A stretch of DNA of 64,000 nt from a virus (IMGVR_UViG_3300028833_003520), one strand, 5' to 3'; counted from the first letter of the stretch, positions 3-23,331 are shown. Numbers and translations: made by a program. The notes: generated by a model not told the origin, from the sequence alone.

Positions 3-1298
3 TATGCAACATCTGTTAAGACGATGGTTGGTGTCGCAGGTAAATCTTCACAGCGTGGTATGAAAGCACTCCGTAACGCTTGCCCTCAAGCCGTTTTGGA
101 GATGACATACCCTGTTACGCAGGGACTTCTGCAGGCAAAACACGACCCTGTTGACGCAAGGCAGAAGTACGCTACGGTTATGGACTCTGTAAGGTCGCTC
201 TGGAAGGGTTATAAACTGAATTTAGTTCAGGTTGATATGCTTGACGAAAATGGTCATAAACTCTATGACGAAAACGGTGATACCCGTAAGACAGAGATTT
301 ATGTCAAGGAGTATGACGATAATCATCAGCCTGTAAGAGCAACAAAAGAAGAGTTTATGGAACAGATGAAAGCCATTTATAGCCGTAAGGATATGCTTAA
401 TGTTGCTATAAACGATGACTACGTTAAAGAGGTTGCTGATAATCTCGTTGGTTCTGATGGACTTATGAGGAGTGTCGAAGACCCCGATGTAGGAAGTCCT
501 ATGGACAGACTTGCATATAAGAACGCAGATGTTCGTGCTATCGACCTTCTTGACGATATGGCAAAGAAGGGTGAGAGTATCTTTGATGGTAAGTACAATC
601 TCGGATTTGCTCCGAGAGCAGTAATGCGTAACATCAATAGAGAGTATCACAATATCAATGCTCGACCTGGCGAGCAGATTAGGGAACTTGATATTATTGC
701 AAAGAAGGACACTCTGGATAAGAAGGGTACTTCGAAGCCTGTTTATAATCAGGAAGATGTAGAGTTCCGTAAGTCAAAAATCGCCGAATTCGTGGCAGCG
801 AAGAGGAAGGTCAGAGAGTTGAACCTCGCATCTAACGGTAAGTATGTCATTTCTGTTGTTCCGACAGAGGACGGTATTGAATCTGAAGATGGTATGAGAG
901 GCTCTGAAGGTGTTAAAACGGTGAAGGATGTCAATTCTTTTATCGGTAAACACGCAAGGGACGGTGCCGTTACTTTCGAAGATGAGGGAACGACTTTCGC
1001 ATTTACACCAACGAATATCCGTTTGGTTGAGAAAGACGAACCTTATGAGACGAGGGATGGCAAACAAGCCGTTACACCTGCTAATTCTGTAGTAGTTACC
1101 TATGGTAACCCCGACTCTGATTACAGTTACGAGTATCGTTTTACTGTAAAAACAAGAGACGGACAGATTGTAAAGCCGAATATGGCACAGGTAAAGATGG
1201 CGATGAATTCGGAAGATACTCCTCCTGTCAACGGTAGGCGAACAATTGAGACTCCTGACGAGACTCCTAATAAGGATGTTGAGGGTAAAATTCCTTGA
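3..1298 (+). CDS. 5'-truncated large protein; putative C-terminal part of a two-barrel (beta'-like/single-subunit) RNA polymerase
   Basis: Frame is open to the window edge (YATSVKT precedes the ORF-track Met). ATSVKTMVGVAGKSSQR resembles the beta' bridge helix (DTALKTANSGYLTRR) and EMTYPVTQGLLQAKH the trigger helix (IGEPGTQLTMRTFH). No catalytic DxDGD is visible in the window. Confidence 0.42.
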   Translation, partial: YATSVKTMVGVAGKSSQRGMKALRNACPQAVLEMTYPVTQGLLQAKHDPVDARQKYATVMDSVRSLWKGYKLNLVQVDMLDENGHKLYDENGDTRKTEIYVKEYDDNHQPVRATKEEFMEQMKAIYSRKDMLNVAINDDYVKEVADNLVGSDGLMRSVEDPDVGSPMDRLAYKNADVRAIDLLDDMAKKGESIFDGKYNLGFAPRAVMRNINREYHNINARPGEQIRELDIIAKKDTLDKKGTSKPVYNQEDVEFRKSKIAEFVAAKRKVRELNLASNGKYVISVVPTEDGIESEDGMRGSEGVKTVKDVNSFIGKHARDGAVTFEDEGTTFAFTPTNIRLVEKDEPYETRDGKQAVTPANSVVVTYGNPDSDYSYEYRFTVKTRDGQIVKPNMAQVKMAMNSEDTPPVNGRRTIETPDETPNKDVEGKIP

Positions 1299-1353
1299 CA
1301 TATGAGGAAATTCGTGATAGTTTTTAACTATCCGAGAATAAGAAAGTCACACT

Positions 1354-1397
1354 AAATCGGAATCTTTATTCTTCGGAAAAAGGTTCCGATTTTTCTT
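1354..1397 (+). terminator. Intrinsic terminator
   Basis: AAATCGGAATCTTT...AAAGGTTCCGATTT hairpin with TTCG loop, followed by a T-tract. Confidence 0.75.
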
Positions 1398-1405
1398 GTT
1401 ATCTG

Positions 1406-1434
1406 TTGACTTTCTCCATATATGGTGTTATATT
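1406..1434 (+). promoter_or_regulatory. Sigma-A promoter with CCATATATGG palindrome (copy 1)
   Basis: TTGACT-17bp-TATATT, TG extended -10, palindrome at 1416-1425. Confidence 0.85.
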
Positions 1435-1484
1435 GACTTTAGTTAATATAGAGCAATACTGTTTGCTTGAAAGGAGATACAGTA

Positions 1485-2501
1485 ATGGCAAATTATCCTG
1501 ATGGTATGTCCAGAGAAGAGTATGAGAAGGCTATGGCTGAAATAATGGCAGAACAAGGCGATACTGCTCCTACTCAGGACGAGATAGATGGTATGGCAGA
1601 GCAACATCACGTCGATTCGATAATGCGTGCTCCTGCAGATTTCGATACAACAAACGATAAAGAGAATTTTGAGCGACTCATTTATGATGTCGGTGTTCAT
1701 TATGATAGTATCAAGTTTGGTGAGTTCGAGAGATGGAATTCAAACGAAACTCAAGACTCTGTAAACGAAGTTCTTGCAAATCGTCTTGTTAATTTCTCTA
1801 AATCTTGGGACCTTTATGGTCACAGAGATGCTTATGATACAGACGAAGAAGCATTTGAGGATATGCGTAAATCCGTTGAGGATTTAGACCAGTTAAAGAA
1901 TATTCACGAGAACCTCTGTGAAGATTTCGAGAATGCTTTTGATACTCCGTCGAAGTGGGTAGATATGATTAAGAGGTCAGATGACCTTTATAATAAACAA
2001 TATGGCGAGATGCCGAAGGAGACAACTATGGTGAATAATGATTACCCTTTAGATAAAAACGGTCAGTTTACTTTCGACTTTACGAAGGAAGTAGCAGAGA
2101 AGTCTGCACCCGAACCGCAGAAAAGTCTTGATGGCAAGACTGCACATAAGATTACTGAAGCGGAAGCAAGGGAGCGTATTGCCCAAGGAGAGTTTTCAAC
2201 TGATGTTGAGCCTTTTATGAGCGACGAAGAGAAGAGCAATGCACTTCTCAGGGAGCAGGAAGAGGCAGAAGACCGTGCTTGGGAAAGACAGCAGGAAGAA
2301 CAGATGAAGAAGGGTAATCAGGATGCTACTGTTAAGCCCACGAACGATTTTAAGCCGTTCAAACCGAGGAGACTTCCTAACGGTGTCACTCAGTACAATG
2401 GTTTCCAAGAGAATGAGAAGGGTGAACTTGTTGATGACGGATTCAGTTTCGAAGAGTATGACAAGGAACCCGAAGACGAGAACGGCGGTCTTGGTGAGTA
2501 A
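1485..2501 (+). CDS. Acidic hypothetical protein with RRLP...LGE C-terminal tail
   Basis: AAGGAG RBS before ATG 1485; ends KPRRLPNG...GGLGE. Confidence 0.85.
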   Translation: MANYPDGMSREEYEKAMAEIMAEQGDTAPTQDEIDGMAEQHHVDSIMRAPADFDTTNDKENFERLIYDVGVHYDSIKFGEFERWNSNETQDSVNEVLANRLVNFSKSWDLYGHRDAYDTDEEAFEDMRKSVEDLDQLKNIHENLCEDFENAFDTPSKWVDMIKRSDDLYNKQYGEMPKETTMVNNDYPLDKNGQFTFDFTKEVAEKSAPEPQKSLDGKTAHKITEAEARERIAQGEFSTDVEPFMSDEEKSNALLREQEEAEDRAWERQQEEQMKKGNQDATVKPTNDFKPFKPRRLPNGVTQYNGFQENEKGELVDDGFSFEEYDKEPEDENGGLGE

Positions 2502-2531: not shown

Positions 2532-4790
2532 ATGGCAGAAACTATTTTTCACGATAATCAGAAACAAGGTGCAAGTGTTCTTGGAACTGTTAAGAACGGT
2601 TACAAGCATAAGTTAACTGCTGAACAGCAGCAAGCACTTGCCGAGATGGTTAAGAAGAAGTCTGACTTACAGATGGATTATATTGATTTTCCTGCAAAAC
2701 ACGCTAAATGGGCAAGTTATGCAGATACACAGGCACAGGTTGATAAGCAGAATCGTATGTATTATGTGGCTTTGCTTGGTATCTGTGCAGTTCCTTTAAG
2801 GCACGGTGTAGATGCTCATTCGATTGCTACTTGTCTTGGTATGTATGCAGGTATTTGTATGGTTAGCCCTGGATTCAGAAAGAACATCAAGGGTATCGTT
2901 GGAGAAGTAATGCTTCCGTATTACGACCAGATACACGATATGTTCCCGAATTCTAAGTTTGCAAAACTGGTTGACAAGGTATTACCCGACAAGAATCAGT
3001 TGCTTATCGAAAAGAATTATGGAAGACTTCCGTTAACACCTGAAACTGCGGCTATGCAGAAGTTAGGGTGGATAGAGAAGGCTTACAAAGATATGCGTGA
3101 GCCTGGTGCCGATGAGGAAACTGTTATGCGTCAGTATAACGATGCTTGCAGAGCGTTAGATGACCTCTGTGAGCGTGATGGTGTTTCCAAAGAGGAAATG
3201 TCACAGAAAATGCAAGCATTTATGATGATGCGTATTCAGGAAAACCCTCAGAATGAGAGGTTTTATGCTGAATTAGATAATGGTTCTGTTACTTTGAGTA
3301 CACAGGACGTTGTTGAGGAAAACCCTGATGGTTTTGTTAGTGTTACTCGTCGTGCTATGCCGACAGAAGTTGATGGTAAGCGTGCTTATTGTTTCTATAA
3401 AGGCAAGAATACTTCTTATGATGGTGATTTTTCACCGAGAAGACCTTCTGCGGCAGAATCTCATAGCCAGAAGATGGGTGAGATTTGTCAGGACTATTGC
3501 CGTACAGTTAAGGATTACAGGGACTTGGGATATGAGTTGCAGTTAAACAATATTCAGTTCAGATTTAGAGATAATGTTGAGTTCTCGAAGTTCTGTGATG
3601 ATTTGGAGTCAGGTATTGGCGAGAACGAAGATTTTTATCGGAATAAATTTGGTATGTCCAAAGACGATTACTTGGCTGGATGCTATGACCTTGTATGTAA
3701 TGATATTACAAGTGCATCAATGGCAAGTTGGATTTTGCAGAAAGATAAGCAGTTGTCTGACCTTGTATCAAGCGAGAAATTAGATGCTTACGATAAGATG
3801 AATGTAAGTACAGAAATTCAGAAGAATTATCAGGGTATGGATATGCTTGTTAGCAAAATCAGAGAGCACGAAGCAAATAAGGCACAACTTGGCATATATG
3901 GTGCATATGCTACTCCGCTTATAGCGTCTGATGATGAGAAGAGAATATTCAATTTCGAAGAAGATACTTCTCTTAACGACGAAGAGCGTCTTATGATGCG
4001 TAATAAGGCTAATAGACAGTATCTCAAGGCTTATTCAGACGCAGTTACGAAGAGATGGCAGTACACGGCTGAGGGTGAGTATGGTAATCTTATTCACTTT
4101 GATTTTGCAACATCTGCAACTAAAGAAGAGCCGACGGCTTCTGTTCAGTTTAGTGGCAGAAACTTCTCTGATGAGAATGATGATGTATCGCCTGATTTGA
4201 ATGTTACACCTATAGATACAGCAAGCGGTGAGAAAGTTGTTCCGAAGTTTACTGAAGAAACATCTATCGAGTTTAATGATAGAGTGCTTGGTCATTTCAC
4301 TTATAGTCCGAAGGAATTTGAGTTGAAGAGCGACAAGCAAGGTCAGTATCTTTACTATATTGGTAGAGCAACTGAAGGCAGAAACATCGAGATACCGCAA
4401 GGTATTAAGTCTTGCCGTTGTATGTTTAAGGATAGACAAGATGTTGTTTCTGCACCTGAAATACCGAATGGTGTTGAGGATTGTAGTGAGATGTTTAGCC
4501 GTTCAGGAATTGAGACACCTCCGAAGATTCCTGGTACTGTTCATAATTGTCAGTATATGTTCTCTGAATGTACGAGCCTTACAAAAGTTCCTGCCGTTCC
4601 TTCATCTGTTACACAGACGAACGGTATGTTTAGTGCTTGTAAAACAAGTATTCAGAAACAGGGTGAAGATGTTATTAGGTATAGAAATAAGGAGTATGAT
4701 ATAGTTCTCGATTTGATGACTCATCAGAAGAACAATCAGAACGATATGGCAGACGATTTTGCGTCAATGTACGGTAGTTTTATCAATTAA
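2532..4790 (+). CDS. Hypothetical protein with C-terminal BspA/DUF285-like leucine-rich repeats
   Basis: 752 aa; four repeats of the form [IV]PxxVxxCxxMFxxC near the C-terminus. Confidence 0.7.
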   Translation: MAETIFHDNQKQGASVLGTVKNGYKHKLTAEQQQALAEMVKKKSDLQMDYIDFPAKHAKWASYADTQAQVDKQNRMYYVALLGICAVPLRHGVDAHSIATCLGMYAGICMVSPGFRKNIKGIVGEVMLPYYDQIHDMFPNSKFAKLVDKVLPDKNQLLIEKNYGRLPLTPETAAMQKLGWIEKAYKDMREPGADEETVMRQYNDACRALDDLCERDGVSKEEMSQKMQAFMMMRIQENPQNERFYAELDNGSVTLSTQDVVEENPDGFVSVTRRAMPTEVDGKRAYCFYKGKNTSYDGDFSPRRPSAAESHSQKMGEICQDYCRTVKDYRDLGYELQLNNIQFRFRDNVEFSKFCDDLESGIGENEDFYRNKFGMSKDDYLAGCYDLVCNDITSASMASWILQKDKQLSDLVSSEKLDAYDKMNVSTEIQKNYQGMDMLVSKIREHEANKAQLGIYGAYATPLIASDDEKRIFNFEEDTSLNDEERLMMRNKANRQYLKAYSDAVTKRWQYTAEGEYGNLIHFDFATSATKEEPTASVQFSGRNFSDENDDVSPDLNVTPIDTASGEKVVPKFTEETSIEFNDRVLGHFTYSPKEFELKSDKQGQYLYYIGRATEGRNIEIPQGIKSCRCMFKDRQDVVSAPEIPNGVEDCSEMFSRSGIETPPKIPGTVHNCQYMFSECTSLTKVPAVPSSVTQTNGMFSACKTSIQKQGEDVIRYRNKEYDIVLDLMTHQKNNQNDMADDFASMYGSFIN

Positions 4791-4803: not shown

Positions 4804-5352
4804 ATGTCGAAGAAGGATTTAAGGCGAAAGTTACCACAGACTACGGGGGATGGAACTGACAATTCTAATTGGCAGGACGATTCACACGAGCAGATTTCGC
4901 TTGCAATGGGTAGTGAAGAATATAAGGAGTTCTTACACGATAATCAAATGCAGTCAAAGACTGATTTCGACGAGGTACGTCGTTTTGAGATTGCTAAAAC
5001 TCAAAAAGACAGAGTGCGTGATAAGCACAATAAGGCTACAGACCACGACGAACACGAGCGTGAGCGTACATATAACGAGGCACACGCCAAAGTTATGCGT
5101 GAAGTCGGTACTGATAAGCAGAAGAAGATGAAGACAAAGTTGAATCAGCGTCAAGCGTATGCTCATATCAAGAAGGAAGACCAGGATAGTAAAGCCGTCT
5201 CGACTGCAAGGAAAGAGGCTGAAAAGACGGAAAGTCCTGAAGATGATAAGCAAGTAAGACGCAATATGCCGAAGACTTTGGAAACACTTAAATACAATGA
5301 CGGAGTGACTGAAGATGATTATCTTCCTAAGGCACTCAGGAAATATACATAA
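4804..5352 (+). CDS. Charged hypothetical protein
   Basis: 182 aa ORF in operon; contains RRKLP near the N-terminus and RRNMPKTL near the C-terminus. Confidence 0.8.
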   Translation: MSKKDLRRKLPQTTGDGTDNSNWQDDSHEQISLAMGSEEYKEFLHDNQMQSKTDFDEVRRFEIAKTQKDRVRDKHNKATDHDEHERERTYNEAHAKVMREVGTDKQKKMKTKLNQRQAYAHIKKEDQDSKAVSTARKEAEKTESPEDDKQVRRNMPKTLETLKYNDGVTEDDYLPKALRKYT

Positions 5353-5366: not shown

Positions 5367-7346
5367 ATGGCGACAAGAGACCAGTTGGGAACCGATGCAA
5401 TTCTTACAGATGCTCAGAAGCAGTATAACAAAGAGCATCGTATGGATAATGCGAAGAAATCGGCAAATGCTGTAAAGGAGAAGATGAACGCTATTGCAGA
5501 AAGGGAATCAGAGCGTTATAACGCTCACCCTGTACTTCATCCTATGAGAAATATGCTCATTATGAAGGGTGTTCAGTATGGTGCTTCTGCAGCGATTTCT
5601 GCGGCGGCAGTTACGGCTCCTGTTGTATATGTGAATCATCGAATGAACAAGAACTTCAAACAGGAGTTCAATGGAATGGGTATGATGAAGTATGCAAAGG
5701 AATATAAGAAAGGCTATAAGAAGGCTGTTAAGGCTGGAAATATGGCTTTTGAAACCGATAAGGACTTTGGACTTACCGAAATGAAATTCGGTGAATATAC
5801 AGGTATTAAGTTACAGAAGGATTCGGAGAACTGGCGTACAACTGTCCTTTCTTGGTTTGACGCAGATGATGAGGCTCAGCGTCTTAATGACCGTGATAAC
5901 GATATAAGACGGCACGAGGCACATATGGCATTCGAGCGTGAAAAAGCCGAAGAAGAGATGCGTAAGCGTAAAGAGGAAATGCGTAAGATGGCAATTCCTA
6001 TGATGGCTTCTGAATTCTTTAGAAATCCTATGATTATTAGGCATTTGGCAGGTCTTAATTCAACTGCGGCACCTAATATGGCAGGATATGAGAATGATTT
6101 CTTCAATAATGCCGCACCGTTTACTAAGGCAGAAGCAATGCCACAGGAAAATACAGCGAAGCCACAGTCTGCTCCTGCAATGAAGGATGTTACTCCTAAT
6201 CAAGCAGATACGGCAGAGCCGATTGTTTATGGTAACGCTCCTGAAGCCAAGCCTCTGCTTGGTGCAGGTAATCAAGTAGTATCTCCGTTACCTGAATTCT
6301 GTGATGATTATCAGGTCGTGCAGATGTCTCCGCAGGTTTTGGAAGCATATACTTCTATGCAAGGCGAGTTTGCTCAAAACTCACCGCTTTATGCTCAGGC
6401 TGCATTGAGACAGCGTACAGACTGGTACGGTCTTCCCGATGGCACATTGGTTGAAGACCTTCAGACATTACAGAGTGCAATGTATTTGCAGTATATGATG
6501 GCAAATATGGCAGACGGTTCTATCACTACTATGAATGATATGGAGTGGTATCAGAACCGTTTCACAGACCATTGGACTGAGTTTGAGCAGACAGCGTTAA
6601 TGCCGAAGTATGGTGATAGGATTAAGGCATTCTATGAATCCAAGAATAAGACACCTTCAAAGGCAGAGCAGATTATGATTGATTCAAACGAGCACAAGTA
6701 TCAGGCTATTGAGCGTGGTACAGAGCCGAAGATTGCTATTGAATCTGCTCGTAAAGAGTCTTCAGTAGGTTTAGGCAGATATGCCGCAAAGACTATAGCA
6801 GATGTATTTGCAGAAGCGGCAGCAAGACATCAGTTCGAAGAGAAGGGAACTATTCCTGTTGCTATCGAACAGAAAGGCGAGGCTATCGCATTGCCTGACA
6901 ATTCTATGAAAGAGAATGATATGCCAGTAGTCGCTGTAAATAGTCTTCCTGAAAAGACGAATGATATGCCAGTAGTCGCTGTAAATAGTCTTCCTGAGAA
7001 GACGAATGAGATGCCTGTAGTGTCTGTGAATGCTCTTCCTGATAAGTCAGGTGGTATGCCTGTAGTTATCAGACCGAACGAAGCGACGGTTGAAGATAAG
7101 GATAAATCGGTAGTGGCTGAAGCAGGTGAGGATGAAGTCAAGGATGATAAGATTGGAACAACGAATGTTGGTTCAGAGAAGAAGAAAGAACATCGTAAAG
7201 TTCCTGCAGGCATAGCGGCTATAGCAAGTGAAGCAAGGAACTTGGATAAGGCATCTAACTATGTTGATGCTGTTCGTAACAGAGATGAAATGAAAGATGT
7301 TCCTGCAGTAAATGAAGCAATAAAAGATAGTGGAATGCAAATGTAA
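5367..7346 (+). CDS. Hypothetical protein with internal 15-aa repeats
   Basis: AAAGGAG RBS; 659 aa. Confidence 0.85.
   Translation: MATRDQLGTDAILTDAQKQYNKEHRMDNAKKSANAVKEKMNAIAERESERYNAHPVLHPMRNMLIMKGVQYGASAAISAAAVTAPVVYVNHRMNKNFKQEFNGMGMMKYAKEYKKGYKKAVKAGNMAFETDKDFGLTEMKFGEYTGIKLQKDSENWRTTVLSWFDADDEAQRLNDRDNDIRRHEAHMAFEREKAEEEMRKRKEEMRKMAIPMMASEFFRNPMIIRHLAGLNSTAAPNMAGYENDFFNNAAPFTKAEAMPQENTAKPQSAPAMKDVTPNQADTAEPIVYGNAPEAKPLLGAGNQVVSPLPEFCDDYQVVQMSPQVLEAYTSMQGEFAQNSPLYAQAALRQRTDWYGLPDGTLVEDLQTLQSAMYLQYMMANMADGSITTMNDMEWYQNRFTDHWTEFEQTALMPKYGDRIKAFYESKNKTPSKAEQIMIDSNEHKYQAIERGTEPKIAIESARKESSVGLGRYAAKTIADVFAEAAARHQFEEKGTIPVAIEQKGEAIALPDNSMKENDMPVVAVNSLPEKTNDMPVVAVNSLPEKTNEMPVVSVNALPDKSGGMPVVIRPNEATVEDKDKSVVAEAGEDEVKDDKIGTTNVGSEKKKEHRKVPAGIAAIASEARNLDKASNYVDAVRNRDEMKDVPAVNEAIKDSGMQM
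6915..7067 (+). repeat. 45-bp in-frame tandem repeat (~3.4 copies, NDMPVVAVNSLPEKT)
   Basis: Units start at 6915, 6960, 7005 and 7050, decaying toward the 3' end. Confidence 0.9.
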
Positions 7347-7545: not shown

Positions 7546-7875
7546 ATGGCAAACAAGAAGAAGGTTAACCCTAAAAAGCCTTCCACAAAGGTAACGAACG
7601 GGAAAGTAACTCGTAAGATGCTCCTCAAAGAAATGGCTCGTCGAAGTGGAGCAGACAGCGAGACGACAATGGCGGTTTTCACATCAATGATAGATGTCAT
7701 TGTTGAAAATGTACGGGACGGTTCGACTGTAAGTATTACAGGATTAGGAAATTTCTATCTTCAGAAGCACAAGGGACATCCTGTGCAGTTTGAGTCCAGT
7801 ACAAACCACGTTGAGGACTATAATGTACTTAAGTTCTCGGCTTCGGATGCTTTGAATAAGAGATTAAGAGAGTAA
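7546..7875 (+). CDS. HU/IHF-family DNA-binding protein (divergent, basic N-terminal extension)
   Basis: GSTVSITGLGNF and LKFSASDAL match the HU fold; start reassigned to ATG 7546 after a purine-rich RBS. Confidence 0.8.
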   Translation: MANKKKVNPKKPSTKVTNGKVTRKMLLKEMARRSGADSETTMAVFTSMIDVIVENVRDGSTVSITGLGNFYLQKHKGHPVQFESSTNHVEDYNVLKFSASDALNKRLRE

Positions 7876-9459: not shown

Positions 9460-9744
9460 ATGAACAAAGGTGAACTTTTTGACGCAGTATTTGAGGCGAC
9501 CGCAAAAGATGGTGGCTCCAAGGCGGCAAATGACAGAAAGGTACAGGCTGTACTTGATGTTATCGCAAAGACAGTAGCAAGTGGTGAGGAAGTTGCTATT
9601 GCAAACTTCGGAACATTCAAGCCTGTAAAGAGAGCCGCAAGAAAATCTCGTAATGTTCTGACAGGCGAGACGATTCAGGTTCCTGAGAAGATTGTTCCTA
9701 AATTCACACCTGGTAAGGCTTTCAAAGAGTCTGTGAACAAGTAA
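9460..9744 (+). CDS. hup: DNA-binding protein HU
   Basis: MNKGEL, GEEVAIANFGTF, RAARKSRN..TGETIQVP, PKFTPGKAFKE. Confidence 0.92.
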   Translation: MNKGELFDAVFEATAKDGGSKAANDRKVQAVLDVIAKTVASGEEVAIANFGTFKPVKRAARKSRNVLTGETIQVPEKIVPKFTPGKAFKESVNK

Positions 9745-10480: not shown

Positions 10481-11158
10481 ATGAGTCAAACAAACAGTTT
10501 TTTATCCCAAAACCGCCCTGCTCGTGGTGAAATTTTTTATGTTGTTCCTCAGGGTGAGGAAGTTAAGTTAGGAGAATTTGTCGGTGGCAGACCTGCTATT
10601 ATCGTTTCAAACGATATGAATAACGAGTTCAACGGTGTTGTTGAAGTAGTTTATATGACGAGGGAAGGTCATCATAAGAATGATTTGCCAACAGATGTAA
10701 AAATTCTCTCTACTGGACAGGCTTCGATAGCACTCTGTAATCAGATTTACACGGTTCATAAGAAGCGTATTGGTAAATATGTAGGACAGTGTACTATTTC
10801 TGAAATGAAAGCCATTGACAAAGCACTATCTGTCGGACTTTGTATGGACACAATTTTCAATCAGAAGAATATTGTCGAGACTCTTGATGAGTGGAAGAAA
10901 CGAGTGCGTCTGGAACCTGATGCAGATGAGATTGAAAACATTCCGTATGTTGAGCCGACTGAAGAAGAATTAGCGAAGGCTAAAGAAGCGAAAGAAAGAG
11001 CGAAAGTCCAGACAGTTCAGGCAAAAGAATCGGTTAAAAATAATGAAGCCGAGAATTCTGAAGCCATTATTAAATTGACGACAGAGCGAGATTTGTATAA
11101 GCAAATGTATCAAGAACTGTTAGCCAAGTGCGTTAAGGCTGGCGTGGATATCAGTTAA
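10481..11158 (+). CDS. PemK/MazF-family endoribonuclease with C-terminal coiled coil
   Basis: RGEIFYV...GGRPAIIVSNDMNN...ALCNQIYTVHKKRI...IDKAL. Confidence 0.85.
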   Translation: MSQTNSFLSQNRPARGEIFYVVPQGEEVKLGEFVGGRPAIIVSNDMNNEFNGVVEVVYMTREGHHKNDLPTDVKILSTGQASIALCNQIYTVHKKRIGKYVGQCTISEMKAIDKALSVGLCMDTIFNQKNIVETLDEWKKRVRLEPDADEIENIPYVEPTEEELAKAKEAKERAKVQTVQAKESVKNNEAENSEAIIKLTTERDLYKQMYQELLAKCVKAGVDIS

Positions 11159-11807: not shown

Positions 11808-11836
11808 TTGACTTTATCCATATATGGTGCTATAGT
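11808..11836 (+). promoter_or_regulatory. Sigma-A promoter with CCATATATGG palindrome (copy 2)
   Basis: TTGACT-17bp-TATAGT; palindrome at 11818-11827. Confidence 0.85.
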
Positions 11837-12479: not shown

Positions 12480-12508
12480 TTGACTTTCTCCATATATGGC
12501 GTTATACT
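12480..12508 (+). promoter_or_regulatory. Sigma-A promoter with CCATATATGG palindrome (copy 3)
   Basis: TTGACT-17bp-TATACT; palindrome at 12490-12499. Confidence 0.85.
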
Positions 12509-14145: not shown

Positions 14146-14505
14146 ATGGCTAACGAGAATGTTGCATACACCATATTCAAAGATAGTCACGGACGTGAAA
14201 AGTTTCGTGGTCTTTGGGATAACAACGGTGTTCCAACGCCTGTTGAAGTTAGACTTGATTATGGTAAGCATAAATGGACTGATAAAGAGATTATGTCTCT
14301 TCTGAAAGGCGAGGAAGTCCAATTAGACTCGTTTGAAACGAAGGGTGGTAATCAGATGCCTATTTCGGGCAAACTCGGTCCTCAGTCTTATATGGGTCGC
14401 CCATATATAGGCTTTGTAAGGACAGATGCAGAAGCCACAAAACGAAGACTCCCTGAAGTTGGTGGAGTAGAACCTACACAGCCTCAGGCAGAAATGGAGG
14501 GATAA
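14146..14505 (+). CDS. Small protein resembling a topoisomerase C-terminal repeat, with RRLP tail
   Basis: WTDKEIMSLLKGEEV...FETKGGN..ISGKL resembles Toprim_Crpt repeats; ends KRRLPEV...EMEG. Confidence 0.55.
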   Translation: MANENVAYTIFKDSHGREKFRGLWDNNGVPTPVEVRLDYGKHKWTDKEIMSLLKGEEVQLDSFETKGGNQMPISGKLGPQSYMGRPYIGFVRTDAEATKRRLPEVGGVEPTQPQAEMEG

Positions 14506-14509: not shown

Positions 14510-15124
14510 ATGTCTTCTGAATCTTTACGTCCAGATAATCCACAAAAGTCAATGCCATTTAGATTGGTTGATTTACAGAGACCAAGAAACGGTATTGATT
14601 TAACTCGCAGAAGTGTTATTTACGAAGGTCAGGAATATTTCGTAAGAATTGGTGCATATTCAAAAGGACAGATGGCGTTGCGTTTTGAAGCGAAGAATGC
14701 GGAAGCATTCAAGCCAGGTGTTGTCCAGAGTTCTGTTAAGCCTATCAGGGTTACTTGGAACTTGGGTAACTATATAGGAAGAGAACGTCCTATGCCGAAG
14801 AATAGCAGTTTTTTGAATACGCCCGAATTTCCTGGCATTGAGGATTTTGTTATGAGTACGGGAGTAGCAAAACCTGTACTTCGTAATGGAGAACAAGTTG
14901 TACGCTGTCATAGAGCCAACAATGAGTGGTATCCTGCTTATGAATTTGACGAGAAGAAGTTGAGAATATTAGACCCCGAAGGGTATGAGCGTTATTCTCA
15001 ATCTTATGATAGGCAGGCAGCCGAGGAAGAGAAGATGAAGACAGCAAGGCTGTCAAGACGACACGGTTCTTGTCCTCAGTTGGAAACATATGACGAGGTT
15101 GTCTTGGACGACGCACAGTTCTAA
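14510..15124 (+). CDS. DUF4313-like protein
   Basis: YSKGQMAL, VTWNL, FLNTPEFPGIEDFV..GVAKP, YPAYEF pattern. Confidence 0.55.
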   Translation: MSSESLRPDNPQKSMPFRLVDLQRPRNGIDLTRRSVIYEGQEYFVRIGAYSKGQMALRFEAKNAEAFKPGVVQSSVKPIRVTWNLGNYIGRERPMPKNSSFLNTPEFPGIEDFVMSTGVAKPVLRNGEQVVRCHRANNEWYPAYEFDEKKLRILDPEGYERYSQSYDRQAAEEEKMKTARLSRRHGSCPQLETYDEVVLDDAQF

Positions 15125-16664: not shown

Positions 16665-16937
16665 ATGAAAAAGAGGAAGATGAAGGAAAGTACGGTGCAG
16701 TTACTTGGTGCATTATTTTTCTTTCTTTGGGGAACAATGCTGTTAATCGGCGGAATACTTGATGTGCCTATTTGTTCATATTACGGATGGGTCAATTGGC
16801 TTGTTGATAAACTGGGAGTGTCAGTGGTCTGTACGGCGTGTGCATTGTTCTGTTATGTTCTGTCAGGCGTTTGTGTTAAACAAGCGTTTGAAGAACAGAA
16901 GAACGAATTAAAAGAAGCATCGGTATCTGATACTTAA
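16665..16937 (+). CDS. Small two-TM membrane protein
   Basis: Two hydrophobic segments. Confidence 0.7.
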   Translation: MKKRKMKESTVQLLGALFFFLWGTMLLIGGILDVPICSYYGWVNWLVDKLGVSVVCTACALFCYVLSGVCVKQAFEEQKNELKEASVSDT

Positions 16938-17013: not shown

Positions 17014-17042
17014 TTGACAATCTCCATATATGGCGTTATACT
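17014..17042 (+). promoter_or_regulatory. Sigma-A promoter with CCATATATGG palindrome (copy 4)
   Basis: TTGACA-17bp-TATACT; palindrome at 17024-17033. Confidence 0.88.
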
Positions 17043-17089: not shown

Positions 17090-17407
17090 ATGGCATTTTC
17101 ACAGTCATCATTGAATAGTCATAAAGATTTGGCAACAAGTGGTATTTCTGAAGAAGAATGGATGAAAGACGATTCTTTGGTTAAAACAAGTGATTTAACT
17201 GAGGAACAGAAGGTTCGTCTTGATAAGATAATGCAACCACCTGTATCAAGATTTAATTCACAGATACGTAAGCGTTTGCAAACTTCTCCAAGACAGGAGA
17301 GGTCAGATTTTATCATTATAAATGAGAAGCCGTCTAATAGAAGGCTGCCTAACTTACCTTCACAATTGACGAGTGATAGAGATTTAGGAGACGATTTTGA
17401 TGGATAA
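17090..17407 (+). CDS. Hypothetical protein with RRLPNLP tail
   Basis: AAGGAG RBS; 105 aa. Confidence 0.8.
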   Translation: MAFSQSSLNSHKDLATSGISEEEWMKDDSLVKTSDLTEEQKVRLDKIMQPPVSRFNSQIRKRLQTSPRQERSDFIIINEKPSNRRLPNLPSQLTSDRDLGDDFDG

Positions 17408-17465: not shown

Positions 17466-18266
17466 ATGACAAGTAATAACCGTCAATTAAAAGCAACACC
17501 TTCTGGTGGTGATATGAACAGCAAAGAACCTAATATGTTTACGTTCTATGTTGATAATTACGGTAGTTATCCTCAAAATAAGCCTGACAGTATCGCTCTG
17601 TATGGTAAAGAGAATATTCCGTTCTTGAAGGATAAGAGCATTGATGAAATCAAGAATGCTCATATGTACTGGGGCAGTGATGAGGCGAGAAGTAGGGAAC
17701 TTTTAGGTATGTATAACGGTGATACGATGGTACTTTTCGGTGATATTGAAAAGTTACCTACAGAGTATAAGCACGATGCCGAATTGATGACACCAAAGTA
17801 TGTTGCAGAGCGTGTACAGAAATCGAAGATGATGAATGTGTATGCTCCTGATGATTTATCGAAAAACTCTTTTTATCTTATTACTTTGGGTAGCAAGGAC
17901 GAAGATGGTGAGGTTTTCCCTGGCATTGAGAGATTTAATCCTGACTATGAGGGAGAGAGTGTTGATGATATTACAAATCATCTTTGTGAGTTCCTTTCAC
18001 AGACAGACAAGGCTTATGTAGATAATCAGAAGTGGGTTCACGAAGTTTACGAAGGAAAAGACCAAGTTTTCGGTAAGTATGTTAACGATATTAGTGATAA
18101 AACGATGAATAAAATCTATGAGGAAATCAAGGGCTATGGTAAGGCATCAGAGATACCTACCATTAAGTCACAGGTAGTAGATTTAAGAAAGAGTCAGAGG
18201 GCAAATCGTAGATTGCCTGATGTACCCGATGTGCAGAATGATAATGAAAAGCAATGTGGAGAGTGA
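17466..18266 (+). CDS. Hypothetical protein with RRLPDVP...QCGE tail
   Basis: GAGG RBS; 266 aa. Confidence 0.85.
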   Translation: MTSNNRQLKATPSGGDMNSKEPNMFTFYVDNYGSYPQNKPDSIALYGKENIPFLKDKSIDEIKNAHMYWGSDEARSRELLGMYNGDTMVLFGDIEKLPTEYKHDAELMTPKYVAERVQKSKMMNVYAPDDLSKNSFYLITLGSKDEDGEVFPGIERFNPDYEGESVDDITNHLCEFLSQTDKAYVDNQKWVHEVYEGKDQVFGKYVNDISDKTMNKIYEEIKGYGKASEIPTIKSQVVDLRKSQRANRRLPDVPDVQNDNEKQCGE

Positions 18267-18280: not shown

Positions 18281-19510
18281 ATGCCTAATTACAAGAGAGG
18301 TCGTATGGGACCTGATAAGTATTTTGATTACTTAGTAGAGCAAGATGAACAGCGTGTTCGTAATGAGAAGGTCGATTCTATACGAGAGACTATCTTTGGA
18401 CCTGCATCATATCAGTCACAGGCAGACGAGGAAAGAACTCAGAGGCAAACAGAGTTTGCTAAACTTGTCCTTGACGGTAAGATGGACTATAGCAGAGCCA
18501 AAGCCAATTATGTTAATAAAAACACGGCTGTAGATTACGAGTGGTTAGCCACGAGAACTGATTCTCAATTGAACAAAGGATTGTTTCTTCGACAGAGATT
18601 TCAGCAGGATGCAAGCGAAGATGAATCCGCTTTGAAGAAGAATATTGAGAATATTAAGAATGAACCCTGTGTATATTTGAGTACGTGCCGTGAGTTACGT
18701 ATAGAGCCAACATCGAATCGTAGCGAAGTGCTTAAACATAAGAGCGATTATGTAGCGTCCTTTGATACGGATGAGGAAGACTTTTTGCGTAAAAAGGCGG
18801 CTGAGTTGGAGTCAAATCCTAATCAGTTGAAAGATTATCTGAGTGTGGCTGCACAGGAAGAGATAATGGATATGCGTGCCAGTGATGAGTGGGTGAAGGC
18901 AAATGGCGGCATACATTTGGATAATGCTAAAAAGTATGGCGAAGGCATTAGACATTTGGATGAGCCGATTCGTTATATGAGCAAATCGTCACAGCAGATG
19001 TTTTATCAGTCCATTATGGATTATATGAAGGAGTCTGCGTTGGGTCCTGATAAGAATCATCCGCTATTTGATAGACCACATAGTTTCACACCTGACCAAG
19101 AAGCAGAATTGCTTTGTAGGTCTAATAAGTGGTATGCGAAGGATTTTGATGCGGCGTATGATACGGCATTCCATAAAGACGGACCTTTGTTCCCGTATCA
19201 GTTTGTTAATCACAGTGGTATGAAACTTAATGAGCAGATGGTTCGTATTCCTGATGATAAGTTACCGAAGGAGCGTTCTTACTTTACAGGTAAATTTGCG
19301 TCTTTGGGATATATTAAACCGAATCCCGATACTGAGAGTGCAATGAAGAAGCAAGAAGGTAGTGCACGTAGGATGCCTGAAACTCTTGCAGATATTCAGC
19401 CGAACCCTGATAGCGTAACGAATAAGCAAGATGATAGTGCACGCAGGATGCCTAAAACTCTTGCAGATATTAAACCGAATCCGAATAACGGTATGCAGTT
19501 AGGAGAGTAA
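18281..19510 (+). CDS. Hypothetical protein with duplicated RRMP tail ending QLGE
   Basis: AAGGAG RBS; SARRMPETLAD / SARRMPKTLAD. Confidence 0.85.
   Translation: MPNYKRGRMGPDKYFDYLVEQDEQRVRNEKVDSIRETIFGPASYQSQADEERTQRQTEFAKLVLDGKMDYSRAKANYVNKNTAVDYEWLATRTDSQLNKGLFLRQRFQQDASEDESALKKNIENIKNEPCVYLSTCRELRIEPTSNRSEVLKHKSDYVASFDTDEEDFLRKKAAELESNPNQLKDYLSVAAQEEIMDMRASDEWVKANGGIHLDNAKKYGEGIRHLDEPIRYMSKSSQQMFYQSIMDYMKESALGPDKNHPLFDRPHSFTPDQEAELLCRSNKWYAKDFDAAYDTAFHKDGPLFPYQFVNHSGMKLNEQMVRIPDDKLPKERSYFTGKFASLGYIKPNPDTESAMKKQEGSARRMPETLADIQPNPDSVTNKQDDSARRMPKTLADIKPNPNNGMQLGE
19349..19483 (+). repeat. 75-bp-period direct repeat duplicating the RRMP tail
   Basis: AAGCAAGA...AGTGCACG.AGGATGCCT.AAACTCTTGCAGATATT at 19349 and 19424. 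Confidence 0.85.
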
Positions 19511-19514: not shown

Positions 19515-20189
19515 ATGGCTAATAAAAAAGCGAAGAAGAGTCTTGCCAAGACGAATACGAAGCCGTCTGTTAAGAAGTCAAATGGTGGTGAATCCAAGAC
19601 TGTAGCGAGTGAGCGAAAGGAAGAGATGAACCTCGATTTAGGTGTCTATGCTGATGGTACTCCGAAGGATGATAAGTTTGCAAAGGCAAAGCAGTTGAAG
19701 GACAAGGGTAATAAGGATGTTACTGATGGCGTTGTAAATCAAGCCAAGAATGCACCTGGACTTGCCATTGGTATTCTCACGACCGCAGGTACTTTAGGCG
19801 GTGGAGCCGTTGTTGGTGTACCGATGATAGTCGGTGCGGCACCTGGTATTATCAAAGGCAAGTATCAGGAAACGAAGGGCAAGATTGAGTTGGCTCAGAG
19901 TGGAATAGAAGCCAATAAGGTTATGAAAGATAATGATATGACGAAGGAAGAAAAGAAGGCGGCTCGTCGTGAGTTAGCCGAGTACAATAAGGATTCAGTC
20001 AAGCGTGCTATTAAGTCCAAGCCTGAGGAAGTTAAGAAGACTCTTGATGATACGAAGGATGCTTTAAGTCAGATTGCAGAGGAAACGAAGAAGTCTGATG
20101 TACACGCAAAGCGTGTAAAACAGGCTAATAGCAGATTGAGTATTCCTGAAACAAGTTCAGTAAACAAGGGTGTTGAACTTGGCGAATAA
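19515..20189 (+). CDS. Hypothetical protein with Gly-rich hydrophobic segment; ends ELGE
   Basis: GLAIGILTTAGTLGGGAVVGVPMIVGAAPG; tail SRLSIPE...ELGE. Confidence 0.8.
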   Translation: MANKKAKKSLAKTNTKPSVKKSNGGESKTVASERKEEMNLDLGVYADGTPKDDKFAKAKQLKDKGNKDVTDGVVNQAKNAPGLAIGILTTAGTLGGGAVVGVPMIVGAAPGIIKGKYQETKGKIELAQSGIEANKVMKDNDMTKEEKKAARRELAEYNKDSVKRAIKSKPEEVKKTLDDTKDALSQIAEETKKSDVHAKRVKQANSRLSIPETSSVNKGVELGE

Positions 20190-20257: not shown

Positions 20258-20265
20258 GAAAAATG

Positions 20266-20295
20266 TTGACAAAACTATGGTTTTATCTATATAAT
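20266..20295 (+). promoter_or_regulatory. Consensus sigma-A promoter of the RHH gene
   Basis: TTGACA-18bp-TATAAT; spacer contains the dyad AAAAC-TATG-GTTTT. Confidence 0.7.
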
Positions 20296-20329
20296 TGATT
20301 TCAAGAATAGGGAAAGAGAGGTGATAGAA

Positions 20330-20710: not shown

Positions 20711-20716
20711 TTTACA

Positions 20717-20745
20717 TTGACAATCTCCATATATGGCGTTATACT
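20717..20745 (+). promoter_or_regulatory. Sigma-A promoter with CCATATATGG palindrome (copy 5)
   Basis: TTGACA-17bp-TATACT; palindrome at 20727-20736; identical to copy 4 over 29 nt. Confidence 0.88.
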
Positions 20746-20787
20746 GTTTTTATAGTATGACGCCATATTTTTATTGAAAGGAAGTCA

Positions 20788-22140
20788 TTGAGTATGGAAG
20801 AAAAAGATATTAAAACTTTATCGTTAGACTATAATTTGTCGCTCGAAGAGCAGACAAAACAGATAAAGGATTATGCTAAAACGGTTAAGGATAGGTCTTT
20901 CCGAGTACAGTATAAAAACAACGAAGAATTCGTTGATTGTGTAAGCATTGTTGATTCGAATAGACGTGTTGATGCTTATGGTAAAGAGCATCCCCTTCCA
21001 CACGTAAAACCGTTTTCAGTTGTTGACGTTTGGTATGAGAATGATGTCAATGGTAGAGGAACAGAGTTACTTGAAGACCAAATGTCAATAGACGGCGTAG
21101 CAGAAGAATATAAGAACCAATCTGATTGGCAGAAGGATGTGTATATGTCAAAAGCAGTAAAGAGTAGCGATTCAGTTTTTGCATATACACAAGAGGATGT
21201 TAAGACTATTGAGCATTTAACTCCTGGTCAGATGAGTGATATGAATAGACGGATTAAACGCACTTTGTTTTTGAATGCTGATTCAAATCTTTCGCAGCAA
21301 TCAATGGCAATAAACAAGTTTGCAAAGAATGGTAATTTTGGCACGTTTTTCGTGGAATATGTTGATAAAGACGGTTTTTGTGTTGATTCAACGATGGCTG
21401 TGGATTTGAGAAAGAATCTGGAAGACGAACCTGATAGGTTTGACTTTTATGGTGATGACCGTCTTGCCAGAAACGTAAGCGTGAGTGAGTTCGTTGAACT
21501 TCGTGAGAAACAGCCGTTTTCACCTAATCACGAACTTACAATGACATCGTATAAAGGTTATGCTGATGAGAAGGCTTTTCAGGAGAATAAGGGTGTTGAT
21601 GTATGCTACCTTTATGATGAGAAAAGGAAGGCTAATAAGCCTGTTCTTTTTATCACTTCTGTAAAGGAACGTGACGGTTTTATTAAACCTCATTCGAACG
21701 GTGGTACAAAATTTGATGGCGAAGCCTATAAATCAAGGCTACCGTATCAGTATAAAGATTGGAAGGTTTTCTTCCACGAGTCTTATGATGATGTGACATC
21801 TGCTATGGCTGCTATGAAAGAGCGTATGGATTCGTTTAGTAAATATAGTCGTACACCTGATTGGAAACAGATGGTGGACTATTATGGTGTAAAATGTACA
21901 AGTGTAGTAGCAGATGTTTATGATAAGAGATTACCTAAGATGTTCAATGAAAATTGCATTGTGAATACAAATGTGGCTTCGAAGAAAGGCGGTATTCCAA
22001 CGACGAATGTTCAGCGTGGTAACGATGAACCAAGGAAGTCAGGAATGCCGACTACAAATGTTAATCCAGAGAAGCCAAAGCGTAGATTACCTTCTATGCC
22101 GACGACAAGTGCAGATAGTGAATGTCAGTTAGGAGAGTAA
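20788..22140 (+). CDS. Hypothetical protein with RRLP...QLGE tail
   Basis: 450 aa (start TTG 20788 or ATG 20794); three [IM]PTT repeats in the tail. Confidence 0.85.
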   Translation: MSMEEKDIKTLSLDYNLSLEEQTKQIKDYAKTVKDRSFRVQYKNNEEFVDCVSIVDSNRRVDAYGKEHPLPHVKPFSVVDVWYENDVNGRGTELLEDQMSIDGVAEEYKNQSDWQKDVYMSKAVKSSDSVFAYTQEDVKTIEHLTPGQMSDMNRRIKRTLFLNADSNLSQQSMAINKFAKNGNFGTFFVEYVDKDGFCVDSTMAVDLRKNLEDEPDRFDFYGDDRLARNVSVSEFVELREKQPFSPNHELTMTSYKGYADEKAFQENKGVDVCYLYDEKRKANKPVLFITSVKERDGFIKPHSNGGTKFDGEAYKSRLPYQYKDWKVFFHESYDDVTSAMAAMKERMDSFSKYSRTPDWKQMVDYYGVKCTSVVADVYDKRLPKMFNENCIVNTNVASKKGGIPTTNVQRGNDEPRKSGMPTTNVNPEKPKRRLPSMPTTSADSECQLGE

Positions 22141-22142
22141 GT

Positions 22143-23015
22143 ATGAGTGTTATTACAGTTCACGGTGTTAAAGGTACTGTTGGTGATAAACCGTTATTTG
22201 ATAAGTTAGTTGAAGATGGTGTTATTCACGAAGGAACTTTATGGTCACCGAAGCGTAAACAGGAAGTTCAGTTTAACAGTATTCTTGATTATCAGAAGTG
22301 CACGGATGCAGTCAAGGCTATGATTGCTGAACGCTGTGCGAATGATGTGCTAAAGTTTCGTAAGAATAATGAAGGCAGAGTTACTGAAGCAGATATCGAA
22401 GAGTATGCGAAGCATTCGAGTGTTGAGCAGTTCAATATGCCTGTTAGCAAGGGTAATGATGGTTCTGTGGTATGGTCTTTGAATTATTGTTATGATGACA
22501 CACCTTTAACGGCAATAAGTACACTTTATCCTGATACACGGTTTGAGTATTATGCAAGCACTGAAGGACATTTAGACACATCTTGTTATGTAAAGAACGA
22601 TAAGTTGTGTAATAAAGATGGTAAGTATTTTGACAAGTATATGCTTGTCAATAAGAGTGCTATCCGAAAAGTGCGAGATAGTGATTCTATGCAAGTTAAT
22701 ATATGGGTGGATTCAAAGGACAAACAGTCTGCAAAATTCTATGTTAAGGAAGATGCAGTTGAGGTGTCTGATTTGACTGGAACTCATAGTTGGCAAGCAG
22801 ATAAGCGTAAGATATTTATCGAAGATAAGAGTAAACCGATTACGCTGTATCGAACACTGGAGAATGGTGAGCGTTCTAAGGAAGAGTGGATGCTTGACGA
22901 TTTAGTCAAAGCAGTCGATGACTGTAAGAACGATTATCGGAAGCGTAAAGCAGAAGAGAAGGCAAATCAGATAACTGGTCCACAGACTGATAATCAGCAG
23001 CAGATTGGAGAGTGA
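22143..23015 (+). CDS. Hypothetical protein ending QIGE
   Basis: ATG 22143 after AGGAG within the previous gene's end. Confidence 0.8.
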   Translation: MSVITVHGVKGTVGDKPLFDKLVEDGVIHEGTLWSPKRKQEVQFNSILDYQKCTDAVKAMIAERCANDVLKFRKNNEGRVTEADIEEYAKHSSVEQFNMPVSKGNDGSVVWSLNYCYDDTPLTAISTLYPDTRFEYYASTEGHLDTSCYVKNDKLCNKDGKYFDKYMLVNKSAIRKVRDSDSMQVNIWVDSKDKQSAKFYVKEDAVEVSDLTGTHSWQADKRKIFIEDKSKPITLYRTLENGERSKEEWMLDDLVKAVDDCKNDYRKRKAEEKANQITGPQTDNQQQIGE

Positions 23016-23019
23016 CAGT

Positions 23020-23331
23020 ATGAGTGGTTTTATTTTAACAACGAAGTCAGGTAGTATTTACACCTTTGAGAAGAACAAGGATAATCCGTATCACACAATG
23101 TCGAGTGAAAAATTCGGTAAGAAAGAAGTGAGTGTTGATAGTGCAGTTATGTGTGGTGCTCCTTTTCAGTTTACTTGCACCGATAATGAGATGAATGGCG
23201 ATTTGAGAGGTAAGCCGATTAGAACATCTGTTGTTGAAAAGATTAGATGTTTTGATGACCAACCGAGAAGACTTCCTGATGTGCCTATACAGCAGACTGG
23301 ATATTCGGCACAGCAGGGTTATGGTGAGTAA
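23020..23331 (+). CDS. Hypothetical protein with RRLPDVP...YGE tail
   Basis: ATG 23020 after GGAG. Confidence 0.8.
   Translation: MSGFILTTKSGSIYTFEKNKDNPYHTMSSEKFGKKEVSVDSAVMCGAPFQFTCTDNEMNGDLRGKPIRTSVVEKIRCFDDQPRRLPDVPIQQTGYSAQQGYGE

Follow-up and report, generated by a model that had tools for sequence, protein, structure and literature searches.

Type IV coupling proteins (T4CPs) are the receptors for the C-terminal signals of type IV secretion system (T4SS) substrates. In the Legionella Dot/Icm (type IVB) system the E-block is an acidic stretch in the last 10–17 residues with a hydrophobic residue at -3/-4, and in the type VII secretion system (T7SS) the C-terminal tail of EsxB is bound by the FtsK/SpoIIIE-type ATPase EccC/EssC. 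Here we describe a shared C-terminal tail in a 64,000-nucleotide stretch of DNA (IMGVR_UViG_3300028833_003520; the whole stretch is called the window hereafter), which belongs to a 243-kb conjugative-type megaplasmid from the rumen and not to a phage. About 14 proteins of its plus-strand arm, together with a giant RNA polymerase (RNAP), end in variants of one peptide of about 20 residues, and these ends are strongly supported by the sequence comparisons as an element-wide, protein-level address tag on a defined protein set. The tail is probably, although we hold this with only modest confidence, a putative export or docking signal for machinery formed by VirD4 and ClpB-like ATPases.

The Arg-rich C-terminal signals of Agrobacterium VirE2 and VirF are read by VirD4 (Vergunst et al. 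2005, as cited in the passages of PMC8406263 used here). Like the substrates of T4SS and VirD4, the tailed proteins are unrelated to each other and carry a short, unstructured and charged C-terminal peptide in which arginines are key, and a VirD4-type ATPase is present on the element. Unlike them, they show a two-part consensus of fixed spacing (RxLPxxP, linker, hydrophobic-G-E) and not a loose charge pattern. Further differences are the monoderm host, the giant VirD4 (1300–1460 aa) with a ClpB-like ATPase paired with it, the failure to detect VirB4 in three complete relatives, and the presence of an RNA polymerase in the cargo, whose translocation is here a proposal. The Dot/Icm E-block is resembled by the RNAP family profile and by the tails of the L005 and actinobacterial relatives described below, the window's own tails being only mildly acidic. 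The upstream RxLPxxP box has no counterpart in Dot/Icm signals, the proposed target is a bacterial recipient and not a eukaryotic host, and no DotL/DotM/IcmSW-type adaptor genes were identified, although no search was made for adaptors. A large membrane-anchored ATPase of the FtsK/VirD4 superfamily, monoderm bacteria and a short disordered C-terminal signal are shared with the T7SS; unlike in that system, the ATPase matches VirD4/TraG/TrwB and not EccC, and a relaxase is present in the family. The tailed proteins gave no Pfam match to WXG100, and YxxxD/E was not noticed by eye in the tails, although no explicit search for it was made.

Conjugative systems transfer plasmid proteins, and passage from donor to recipient is described for the 'conjutome' of the F-like plasmid pED208 and for the Sog and TraC primases (passages of PMC8406263 and PMC11288057); substrates need unfolding for this passage (PMC5826034). 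By our proposal many plasmid establishment proteins would likewise be delivered via the conjugation machine. The F-like signals named in those passages of PMC8406263 are TSA and TSB, internal to the relaxase, with no shared linear tag, whereas the tag described here can be recognised and would allow the cargo to be listed from sequence alone. RNA polymerases injected by phages are also known, namely the N4 virion RNAP and the tape-measure-fused two-barrel RNAP of P23-45 (bioRxiv 10.1101/2022.12.01.518664). In our case too a giant element-owned polymerase would enter the new host with the DNA, its injection being a proposal only, and its delivery would depend on a conjugation motor and a C-terminal tag, not on a virion. 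No earlier account of the plasmid family, of its RNAP or of the tail was found in the searchable literature.

The C-terminal tail and the genes that carry it

A simple gene call gave 24 genes on the plus strand (window 1–23.4 kb; the plus arm) and 39 on the minus strand (beyond 24.6 kb; the minus arm). The motif R[RK][LMT]P was present within the last 30 aa of 8 of the 24 plus-arm proteins and of none of the 39 minus-arm proteins (Fisher 2e-4), and in the eight proteins it stands 19–22 residues from the C-terminus every time. When each protein was shuffled (2000 trials), the mean number of proteins with the motif was 0.026 and the maximum 2. A terminal G[ED]{1,2} was found in 8/24 plus-arm and 1/39 minus-arm proteins, the shuffle mean being 0.27. 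An earlier note on this DNA had listed tails in nine proteins (named by their start positions: 11878, 12548, 14146, 17090, 17466, 18281, 20788, 23020 and 1485), and all were found at the C-terminal distances given there; its looser versions (19515, 22143, 14510, 4804 and the first gene) were also confirmed, and with these the set of tail carriers comprises the RNA polymerase and about 14 other proteins. The same note had seen the tail in none of the minus-arm genes, in agreement with the count above, and had seen no signal peptide on the tailed proteins. This was borne out: none of them has a signal peptide or a transmembrane-like segment (KD19 maximum 1.7 or less), and three plus-arm proteins that do contain signal or transmembrane-like segments all lack the tail. 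Sortase (LPXTG) or membrane-anchoring C-terminal signals do not fit the tailed proteins, whose tails are hydrophilic.

A profile hidden Markov model (HMM) of the tail was applied to 1295 six-frame open reading frames (ORFs) from the window and six other loci. At E<0.1 the matches were confined to real plus-strand genes, and the first off-target match had an E-value of 0.83. The matches ended at most 5 residues from the C-terminus, except for two weak secondary stretches inside two matched proteins. The model was trained on the tails of the window and of the relative L005 (numbers preceded by L denote related loci) and is circular for those, its independent value lying in the L011 matches and in the negatives.

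In the reading that we consider best, and that we judge to be probably correct, the tail is an address peptide at the C-terminus, intrinsically disordered and made up of two parts. The first, placed about 20 residues from the end, is a basic box with proline, R-x-[LMT]-[P or hydrophobic]-[D/E]-x-P, which in the window reads RRLPDVP. It is followed by a polar or acidic linker of 9–13 residues and by a carboxy-terminus of the form hydrophobic-Gly-[E/D/G/A], with Q-[LYCI]-G-E as the window version. In the AF2 model made for the 12548 family's C-terminal domain the body has a pLDDT of 72–94 and the last 24 residues one of 36–38, and the tail of 12548 is predicted from this model to be a disordered appendage. 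No PDB fold match was obtained with the modelled domain.

The tailed genes are one regulon. A palindrome, CCATATATGG, occurs in exactly five copies in the window, all of them on the plus arm (about one match is expected even at one mismatch), and it has a fixed position within the 17-nt spacer of TTGAC[AT]-N17-TATAnT promoters. The copies are located at 1416, 11818, 12490, 17024 and 20727 in the window, at 9230 and 16235 in L020, a locus from a bovine metagenome, and at 4526 in L016. The five operons behind these promoters (A to E, Table 1) contain every tailed gene, and the untailed plus-arm genes use other promoters. Tails were present in 14 of the 15 genes behind the promoters with CCATATATGG in the spacer and in none of the 11 other plus-arm genes (Fisher 1.6e-6); with strict tails only, the counts were 11/15 and 0/11. 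In L020 the same promoter class also stands before the operon of a 214-aa protein and the RNAP. It is likely that CCATATATGG is the putative operator of a dedicated regulator of the tailed operons and, in L020, of the RNAP operon.

Some other identities of the tail were examined and rejected. A class I SH3-ligand reading of RRLPDVP was dropped because the L005 lineage loses the first proline (RELIDAP), a prohead-protease L-x-E site was ruled out by the absence of capsid genes, and stop-codon reassignment or a polyprotein was ruled out by the fact that the genes lie in different frames with their own Shine-Dalgarno sequences and start codons.

Conservation of the tail and nature of the element

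The tail is kept in orthologues from related elements, on which the earlier note had made its interpretation depend. The bodies of the L020 orthologues are 38–45% identical to the window proteins, and the last 25 aa of 1485 are 80% identical to those of its L020 orthologue, versus 38% for the body. The RRxIETP box of the RNAP is kept in the L020 orthologue in the midst of unalignable sequence, and the box of 5367 reads RNRNDMKQVP-x10-QLGL in L020, the shared form being RNRxxMKxVP-x10-hydrophobic-x-hydrophobic. The 12548 protein and its 91% relative in L016 (59–1651) differ by 46 nonsynonymous and 42 synonymous codons, with all the motif residues unchanged, and the neighbours of 12548 show 99–100% protein identity in L016. 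This fast evolution of 12548 suggests diversifying selection or recombination.

More distant elements have their own versions. L005 (a 150-kb contig) and L011 have only one protein family in common with the window, and 12 of their plus-strand proteins end in R-x-L-[IV]-[DE]-[AG]-P-E-D..hydrophobic-G-[GDE], the geometry of about 20 residues being unchanged. In L019 the RNAP ends in SRRMPDVP..DYGA and three neighbours have RR[LP]xP..aromatic ends; in L028, an Actinomyces metagenome-assembled genome, the RNAP ends in ..DDGFEL and the next two genes in ARRMG-x13-DDGFEL. The plasmid pGKT2 (Gordonia) has the tails RDLPEG-x10-PQLGG, ..GPQLG and ..GPELGA, its RNAP ends in ..EGLGA, and a 420-aa protein ends in ..RDLPEGNAAPTNDNGPQLGG. 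The C-termini of 117 full-length RNAP homologues are basic at -21..-36, acidic at -2 and at -4..-8, and hydrophobic at -1 and -3.

A residue-level position-specific scoring matrix built from RNAP ends was dominated by the DDDYGMGY type of Streptomyces and generalised poorly, and a generic class-based test was used instead. The test, fixed beforehand, asked for a net acidity of at least 3 over the 12 terminal residues, the absence of K and R from the terminal 6 and the presence of F, Y, W, L or M among the terminal 4. In 68 non-redundant actinobacterial loci, with a gene calling that is crude at their high GC content, it was passed by 47/68 RNAPs, 31/88 downstream plus-strand genes, 0/119 genes of the upstream machine and 42/506 minus-strand genes (Fisher 3e-12). 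A tail-profile search of a 5.8-billion-protein set ('longer' lengths) returned matches only from the same two element lineages and is uninformative on breadth. Taken together, the tail is conserved, in a version of its own shared within each element; it is carried by the polymerase and by neighbours encoded downstream, and the motor proteins lack it.

An exact match to the 338-aa protein (1485–2501) identified the window's own contig (243,445 bp; ENA ERZ27257202), whose stored gene calls place a 1458-aa VirD4 (T4SS-DNA_transf, TraG-D_C), a 208-aa protein and a 2136-aa RNA_pol_Rpb1_2 protein directly upstream of the window, and the first ORF of the window is the end of that polymerase; the pGKT2 homologue of the RNAP matches both Rpb2_6 and Rpb1_2. 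In pGKT2 a two-ring ClpB-like ATPase, a membrane-anchored protein and a 1412-aa VirD4 precede the RNAP. The order MobL relaxase, ClpB-like ATPase, anchored protein, giant VirD4, RNAP and HU is found in pGKT2, a Streptomyces plasmid and L017. L020 has the same module minus the relaxase, which falls outside the stretch compared, with the window's genes in the same order, and a 55-kb S. aureus plasmid has VirD4 and then RNAP, with MobL annotated elsewhere on the record. HU is kept just downstream of the polymerase in Streptomyces, L017, L019 and L020. A ClpB-like gene lies upstream of VirD4 in L017 and L020, and a second L017 copy is next to UvrD, as in the window. The polymerase family has 244 cluster representatives at E <= 0.001 (50% identity clusters, metagenomes), and 74 polymerase loci, some of them chromosomal, were found in actinobacterial species genomes. 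Three complete relatives were available, pGKT2 (NC_018580.1), the S. aureus plasmid NZ_CP150776.1 and the Streptomyces plasmid NZ_CP109461.1. Transfer of pGKT2 between genera has been reported (Jung et al. 2011, as cited in the passage of PMC5640721 used here), and the cross from Gordonia sp. KTR9 to Rhodococcus jostii is known to succeed; transfer takes place despite an undetected VirB4, and the family may use an uncharacterised transfer apparatus.

Features of the window

The coordinates of the tailed genes, their promoters and other features are collected in Table 1. Pfam, PHROGs and NCBIfam assigned no families to the tailed proteins, the only matches being sub-threshold ones to DUF948 and DUF4313, and the ESM Atlas gave no usable match for the plus-arm proteins. 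Plus-arm proteins with family matches (two HU-like, one MazF-like and one DUF2130) are all untailed. The plus-arm DNA had no match in phage and plasmid collections, IMG/VR queried with the RNAP fragment and the 12548 protein gave none, and neither did a first profile search of genome contigs with the 12548 family.

Table 1. Positions of genes, promoters and other features in the window
Position	Strand	Feature	C-terminal end or remark
3..1298	+	C-terminal 431 aa of 2136-aa fused beta/beta'-type RNA polymerase	end GRRTIETPDETPNKDVEGKIP; RRxIETP 20 aa from end
1406..1434	+	promoter, operon A (1485, 2532, 4804, 5367)	TTGACT-N17-TATATT, CCATATATGG in spacer
1485..2501	+	tailed orphan, 338 aa	RRLP 44 aa from end, long acidic linker, GLGE-COOH
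2532..4790	+	752 aa, operon A	no clear tail (end ..MYGSFIN); sole exception in regulon
4804..5352	+	182 aa	variant tail RRNMPKTL.., 30 aa from end; additional N-terminal RRKLP box (residues 7-11), L020 orthologue (19805-20353) retains RRLP
5367..7346	+	659 aa	degenerate tail RNRDEMKDVP-x10-GMQM
7546..7875	+	HU-like	outside tail regulon
9460..9744	+	HU-like	outside tail regulon
10481..11158	+	MazF/PemK-like toxin domain	about 100-aa C-terminal extension; outside tail regulon
11808..11836	+	promoter, operon B	CCATATATGG in spacer
11878..12423	+	tailed orphan, 181 aa	RRTPDVP..PQME, box 19 aa from end
12480..12508	+	promoter, operon C	CCATATATGG in spacer
12548..14140	+	tailed orphan, 530 aa	RRRLPDVP..KQYGEE, box 20 aa from end
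14146..14505	+	tailed orphan, 119 aa	KRRLPEV..AEMEG, box 20 aa from end
14510..15124	+	204 aa; weak DUF4313 match	loose acidic tail SRRH.. 22 aa from end, ..DDAQF
16665..16937		small membrane protein	only 57% identical in L016 comparison
17014..17042	+	promoter, operon D	CCATATATGG in spacer
17090..17407	+	tailed orphan, 105 aa	RRLPNLP..DLGDDFDG, box 22 aa from end
17466..18266	+	tailed orphan, 266 aa	RRLPDVP..KQCGE, box 19 aa from end
18281..19510	+	tailed orphan, 409 aa	RRMP..GMQLGE 22 aa from end, second copy at 47; tandem 25-residue repeat, ARRMPETLADIQPNP.. then ARRMPKTLADIKPNP..GMQLGE
19515..20189	+	224 aa, last gene of operon D	looser first half SRLSIP, ELGE-COOH (GGCGAA)
20717..20745	+	promoter, operon E	CCATATATGG in spacer
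20788..22140	+	tailed orphan, about 450 aa	KRRLPSMP..CQLGE, box 19 aa from end
22143..23015	+	290 aa	loose first half KRK.., QQIGE-COOH
23020..23331	+	tailed orphan, 103 aa, last arm gene, then terminator	RRLPDVP..GYGE (GGTGAG), box 21 aa from end
23787..24458	-	full-length ROOL RNA	Rfam RF03087, 198 bits vs gathering score 99, model positions 1-574
24603..25607	-	ThyX homologue	about 190-aa N-terminal extension; Pfam domain = residues 188-304 only
32555..37651	-	UvrD-like helicase then ClpB-like ATPase	pair kept at L017 22110-25742 (67% GC actinobacterial scaffold)
35588..37651	-	ClpB-like two-ring AAA+ ATPase, no N or M domain	candidate reader/unfoldase of tail

The products of the minus arm include ThyX, a DNA methylase, a UvrD-like helicase, a two-ring ClpB-like ATPase, an AAA protein, an SNF2 helicase, NrdD and a GmrSD-N protein. 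The two arms converge at a gene-free gap of 1.27 kb, in which the ROOL RNA sits. The GC skew is strongly positive on the plus arm (0.17–0.26) and weakly positive on the minus arm (0.02–0.12), and the AT skew flips its sign at about 24 kb. In L005 (14299–16067) and L011 (7126–8774) a sortase was found beside a 326–366-aa protein, and after these come a D5-type primase-helicase, PTH2 and a signal peptidase; all of them are without a tail.

Possible readers of the tail and alternative explanations

The earlier note had interpreted the tail as an element-wide address tag that marks cargo for conjugative translocation, virion packaging or recognition by a Clp ATPase. The element-wide tag acting at the protein level stands, on the evidence of the orthologues, the versions proper to each element, the predicted disorder, the restriction to soluble proteins and the single regulon; the virion as a destination found no support in the proteins scanned. 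Since the tail is element-specific, its reader should be encoded by the element itself, and the conserved candidates are VirD4 and the adjacent ClpB-like unfoldase. In the export reading that we favour, the tail would dock the tagged proteins on the transfer ATPases, that is, the 1458-aa VirD4-type coupling protein and the two-ring ClpB-like unfoldase next to it, and the free unstructured C-terminus would be the starting point for the unfoldase. The tagged proteins would then be exported to the recipient cell along with the transferred DNA, and the RNAP and fast-evolving establishment or anti-host factors would be in the recipient ahead of all expression of plasmid genes. The earlier note had given conjugative translocation and recognition by a Clp-type ATPase as alternatives; they may be two steps of one pathway.

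Two features of T4CP substrates were found here, namely a shared unstructured C-terminal signal on unrelated orphan bodies and a VirD4/TraG-type coupling protein on the same element. A third, a VirB4-type ATPase with a mating-pair channel, was not: of the genes to which the earlier note had drawn attention, VirD4 is present on the window's own contig and in 3/3 complete relatives, no capsid gene was seen in the proteins scanned, and VirB4 (PF12846, PF03135, PF01935) was undetected in the three complete relatives, where a strongly diverged VirB4 may have escaped these families. For this reason the transfer channel is no recognisable classical T4SS, and the label 'classical T4SS substrate' is too strong. 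The undetected VirB4 is one of several observations that weigh against the export reading. MOB-suite classes the three complete relatives as mobilizable or non-mobilizable, and the export channel of the family may be something other than a classical T4SS. The promoters of the tailed operons are of the host's sigma-70-like type and carry an operator, as would equally be expected of genes that are induced in the recipient after entry, for which no translocation would be needed. Conservation of the tail above that of the body is clear in 1485, modest in 4804 (0.85 vs 0.67) and not seen overall in 5367. The tails of the relaxases are inconsistent, that of L017 (..EDPEQGL) fitting and the MobL proteins of pGKT2 and Streptomyces not, and the RNAP tail of the window is without the hydrophobic-G-E end (..VEGKIP).

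An explanation that we regard as unlikely is that the tail is a client tag for the ClpB-like AAA+ ATPases only, without export, which would serve unfolding, remodelling or turnover in one cell and might, for example, keep early establishment factors short-lived, or inactive until they are needed. The family does keep two ClpB-like ATPases of the two-ring type that lack N and M domains, AAA+ unfoldases typically take hold of unstructured ends some 20 residues long, which agrees with the predicted disorder of the tail, and operator-controlled promoters suit timed expression. ClpB-type enzymes, however, work without a protease partner, and none was seen beside them, while the first ClpB-like gene stands in the same plus-strand row as VirD4, an arrangement that points to transfer. 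It is also hard to justify a turnover tag, kept across phyla, on the RNA polymerase of the element itself, and the degrons known so far are shorter and recognised by proteases of the host, from which no element-specific versions would result. The tail might instead dock on an intracellular hub that is not a motor, namely HU-like proteins, DNA coated by SSB (a protein that binds to single-stranded DNA) or bound by the relaxase, or the polymerase, and so bring its carriers together in a single nucleoprotein complex, as a reversed counterpart of the acidic tail at the C-terminus of SSB, although this is quite improbable. The acidic stretch and hydrophobic tip of the tails in many relatives, their likeness to the tip ..DDLPF of plasmid SSBs on the same records and the HU genes kept just downstream of tailed genes would fit such docking. 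Yet the polymerase is itself tailed and would be a client and not the hub, and HU and SSB are conserved and cannot explain the differences in tail among elements.

Packaging into a virion or particle, in the manner of encapsulin cargo peptides or phage internal proteins, is extremely unlikely. Encapsulins do have C-terminal cargo-loading peptides, the minus arm contains genes of large-phage type (ThyX, NrdD, a dUTPase-like C-terminal motif, SNF2 helicase and DNA methylase), and the RNAP of L020 showed a weak PDB match to the tape-measure-fused virion RNAP of P23-45. Against this, no capsid, portal or terminase was found among 41 window proteins (of about 80 ORFs) with Pfam, the 20 plus-arm proteins scanned gave no capsid, portal, terminase or phage-tail genes and no PHROG matches, and neither DNA nor protein matched the phage collection or IMG/VR. 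Instead, VirD4 is encoded by the element, whose plasmid family has a MobL relaxase, and the packaging proposed in the earlier note finds no support. It is also very improbable that the tail is functionless, a by-product at the DNA level of Shine-Dalgarno sequences in the last codons or of a 3' recombination module shared through gene-cassette shuffling, and this explanation is already largely refuted here. The terminal GE is encoded by GGAGAG exactly where the next start codon lies 4–8 nt downstream (12548, 18281, 20788 and 22143), and because of that distance GGAGAG doubles as a Shine-Dalgarno sequence; GAGGGA plays this role in 14146, and the L005 genes are spaced 3–4 nt apart. In 1485, 19515 and 23020, by contrast, GE is encoded by GGTGAG or GGCGAA, with no close downstream gene that needs a Shine-Dalgarno sequence. 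The argument from codon variation in the earlier note is refined in this respect. No Shine-Dalgarno role falls to the RxLPxxP box, which lies 60 nt upstream, or to the Q/E-hydrophobic residues that precede GE, and together with the GGTGAG and GGCGAA ends they speak against Shine-Dalgarno overlap as the sole cause. Minus-arm genes, though tightly packed, never show such ends (0/39), the high-GC relatives have the same protein pattern with other codons, and there is no shared DNA module, because the codons vary among the copies. This indicates that the tail acts at the protein level.

Returning to the export reading, we tentatively propose a conjugative family of monoderm bacteria, without a recognisable VirB4 channel, in which a giant VirD4 and a dedicated ClpB-like unfoldase would inject the tagged RNAP and effectors with the DNA. 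The injected RNAP would transcribe the incoming plasmid, as in N4, and the tail would make the whole injected proteome readable from sequence. The proposed family is found in Actinomycetota, on Staphylococcus plasmids and on rumen megaplasmids. These results point to a transfer module that has not been described (a MobL relaxase, a ClpB-like unfoldase, a giant VirD4 and the RNAP, with VirB4 undetected); it is common in Actinomycetota and occurs also in the rumen megaplasmids and in plasmids of staphylococci. Should the tail be an export signal, it would be, as far as we have found, the first sequence-readable address label for proteins delivered by conjugation in Gram-positive bacteria. It would list the injected proteome of each element, including the giant RNAP and the fast-evolving orphans, and the latter would naturally come into question as factors of anti-defence and establishment. 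Protein delivery between bacteria is a further use to which a tag of this kind could be put.

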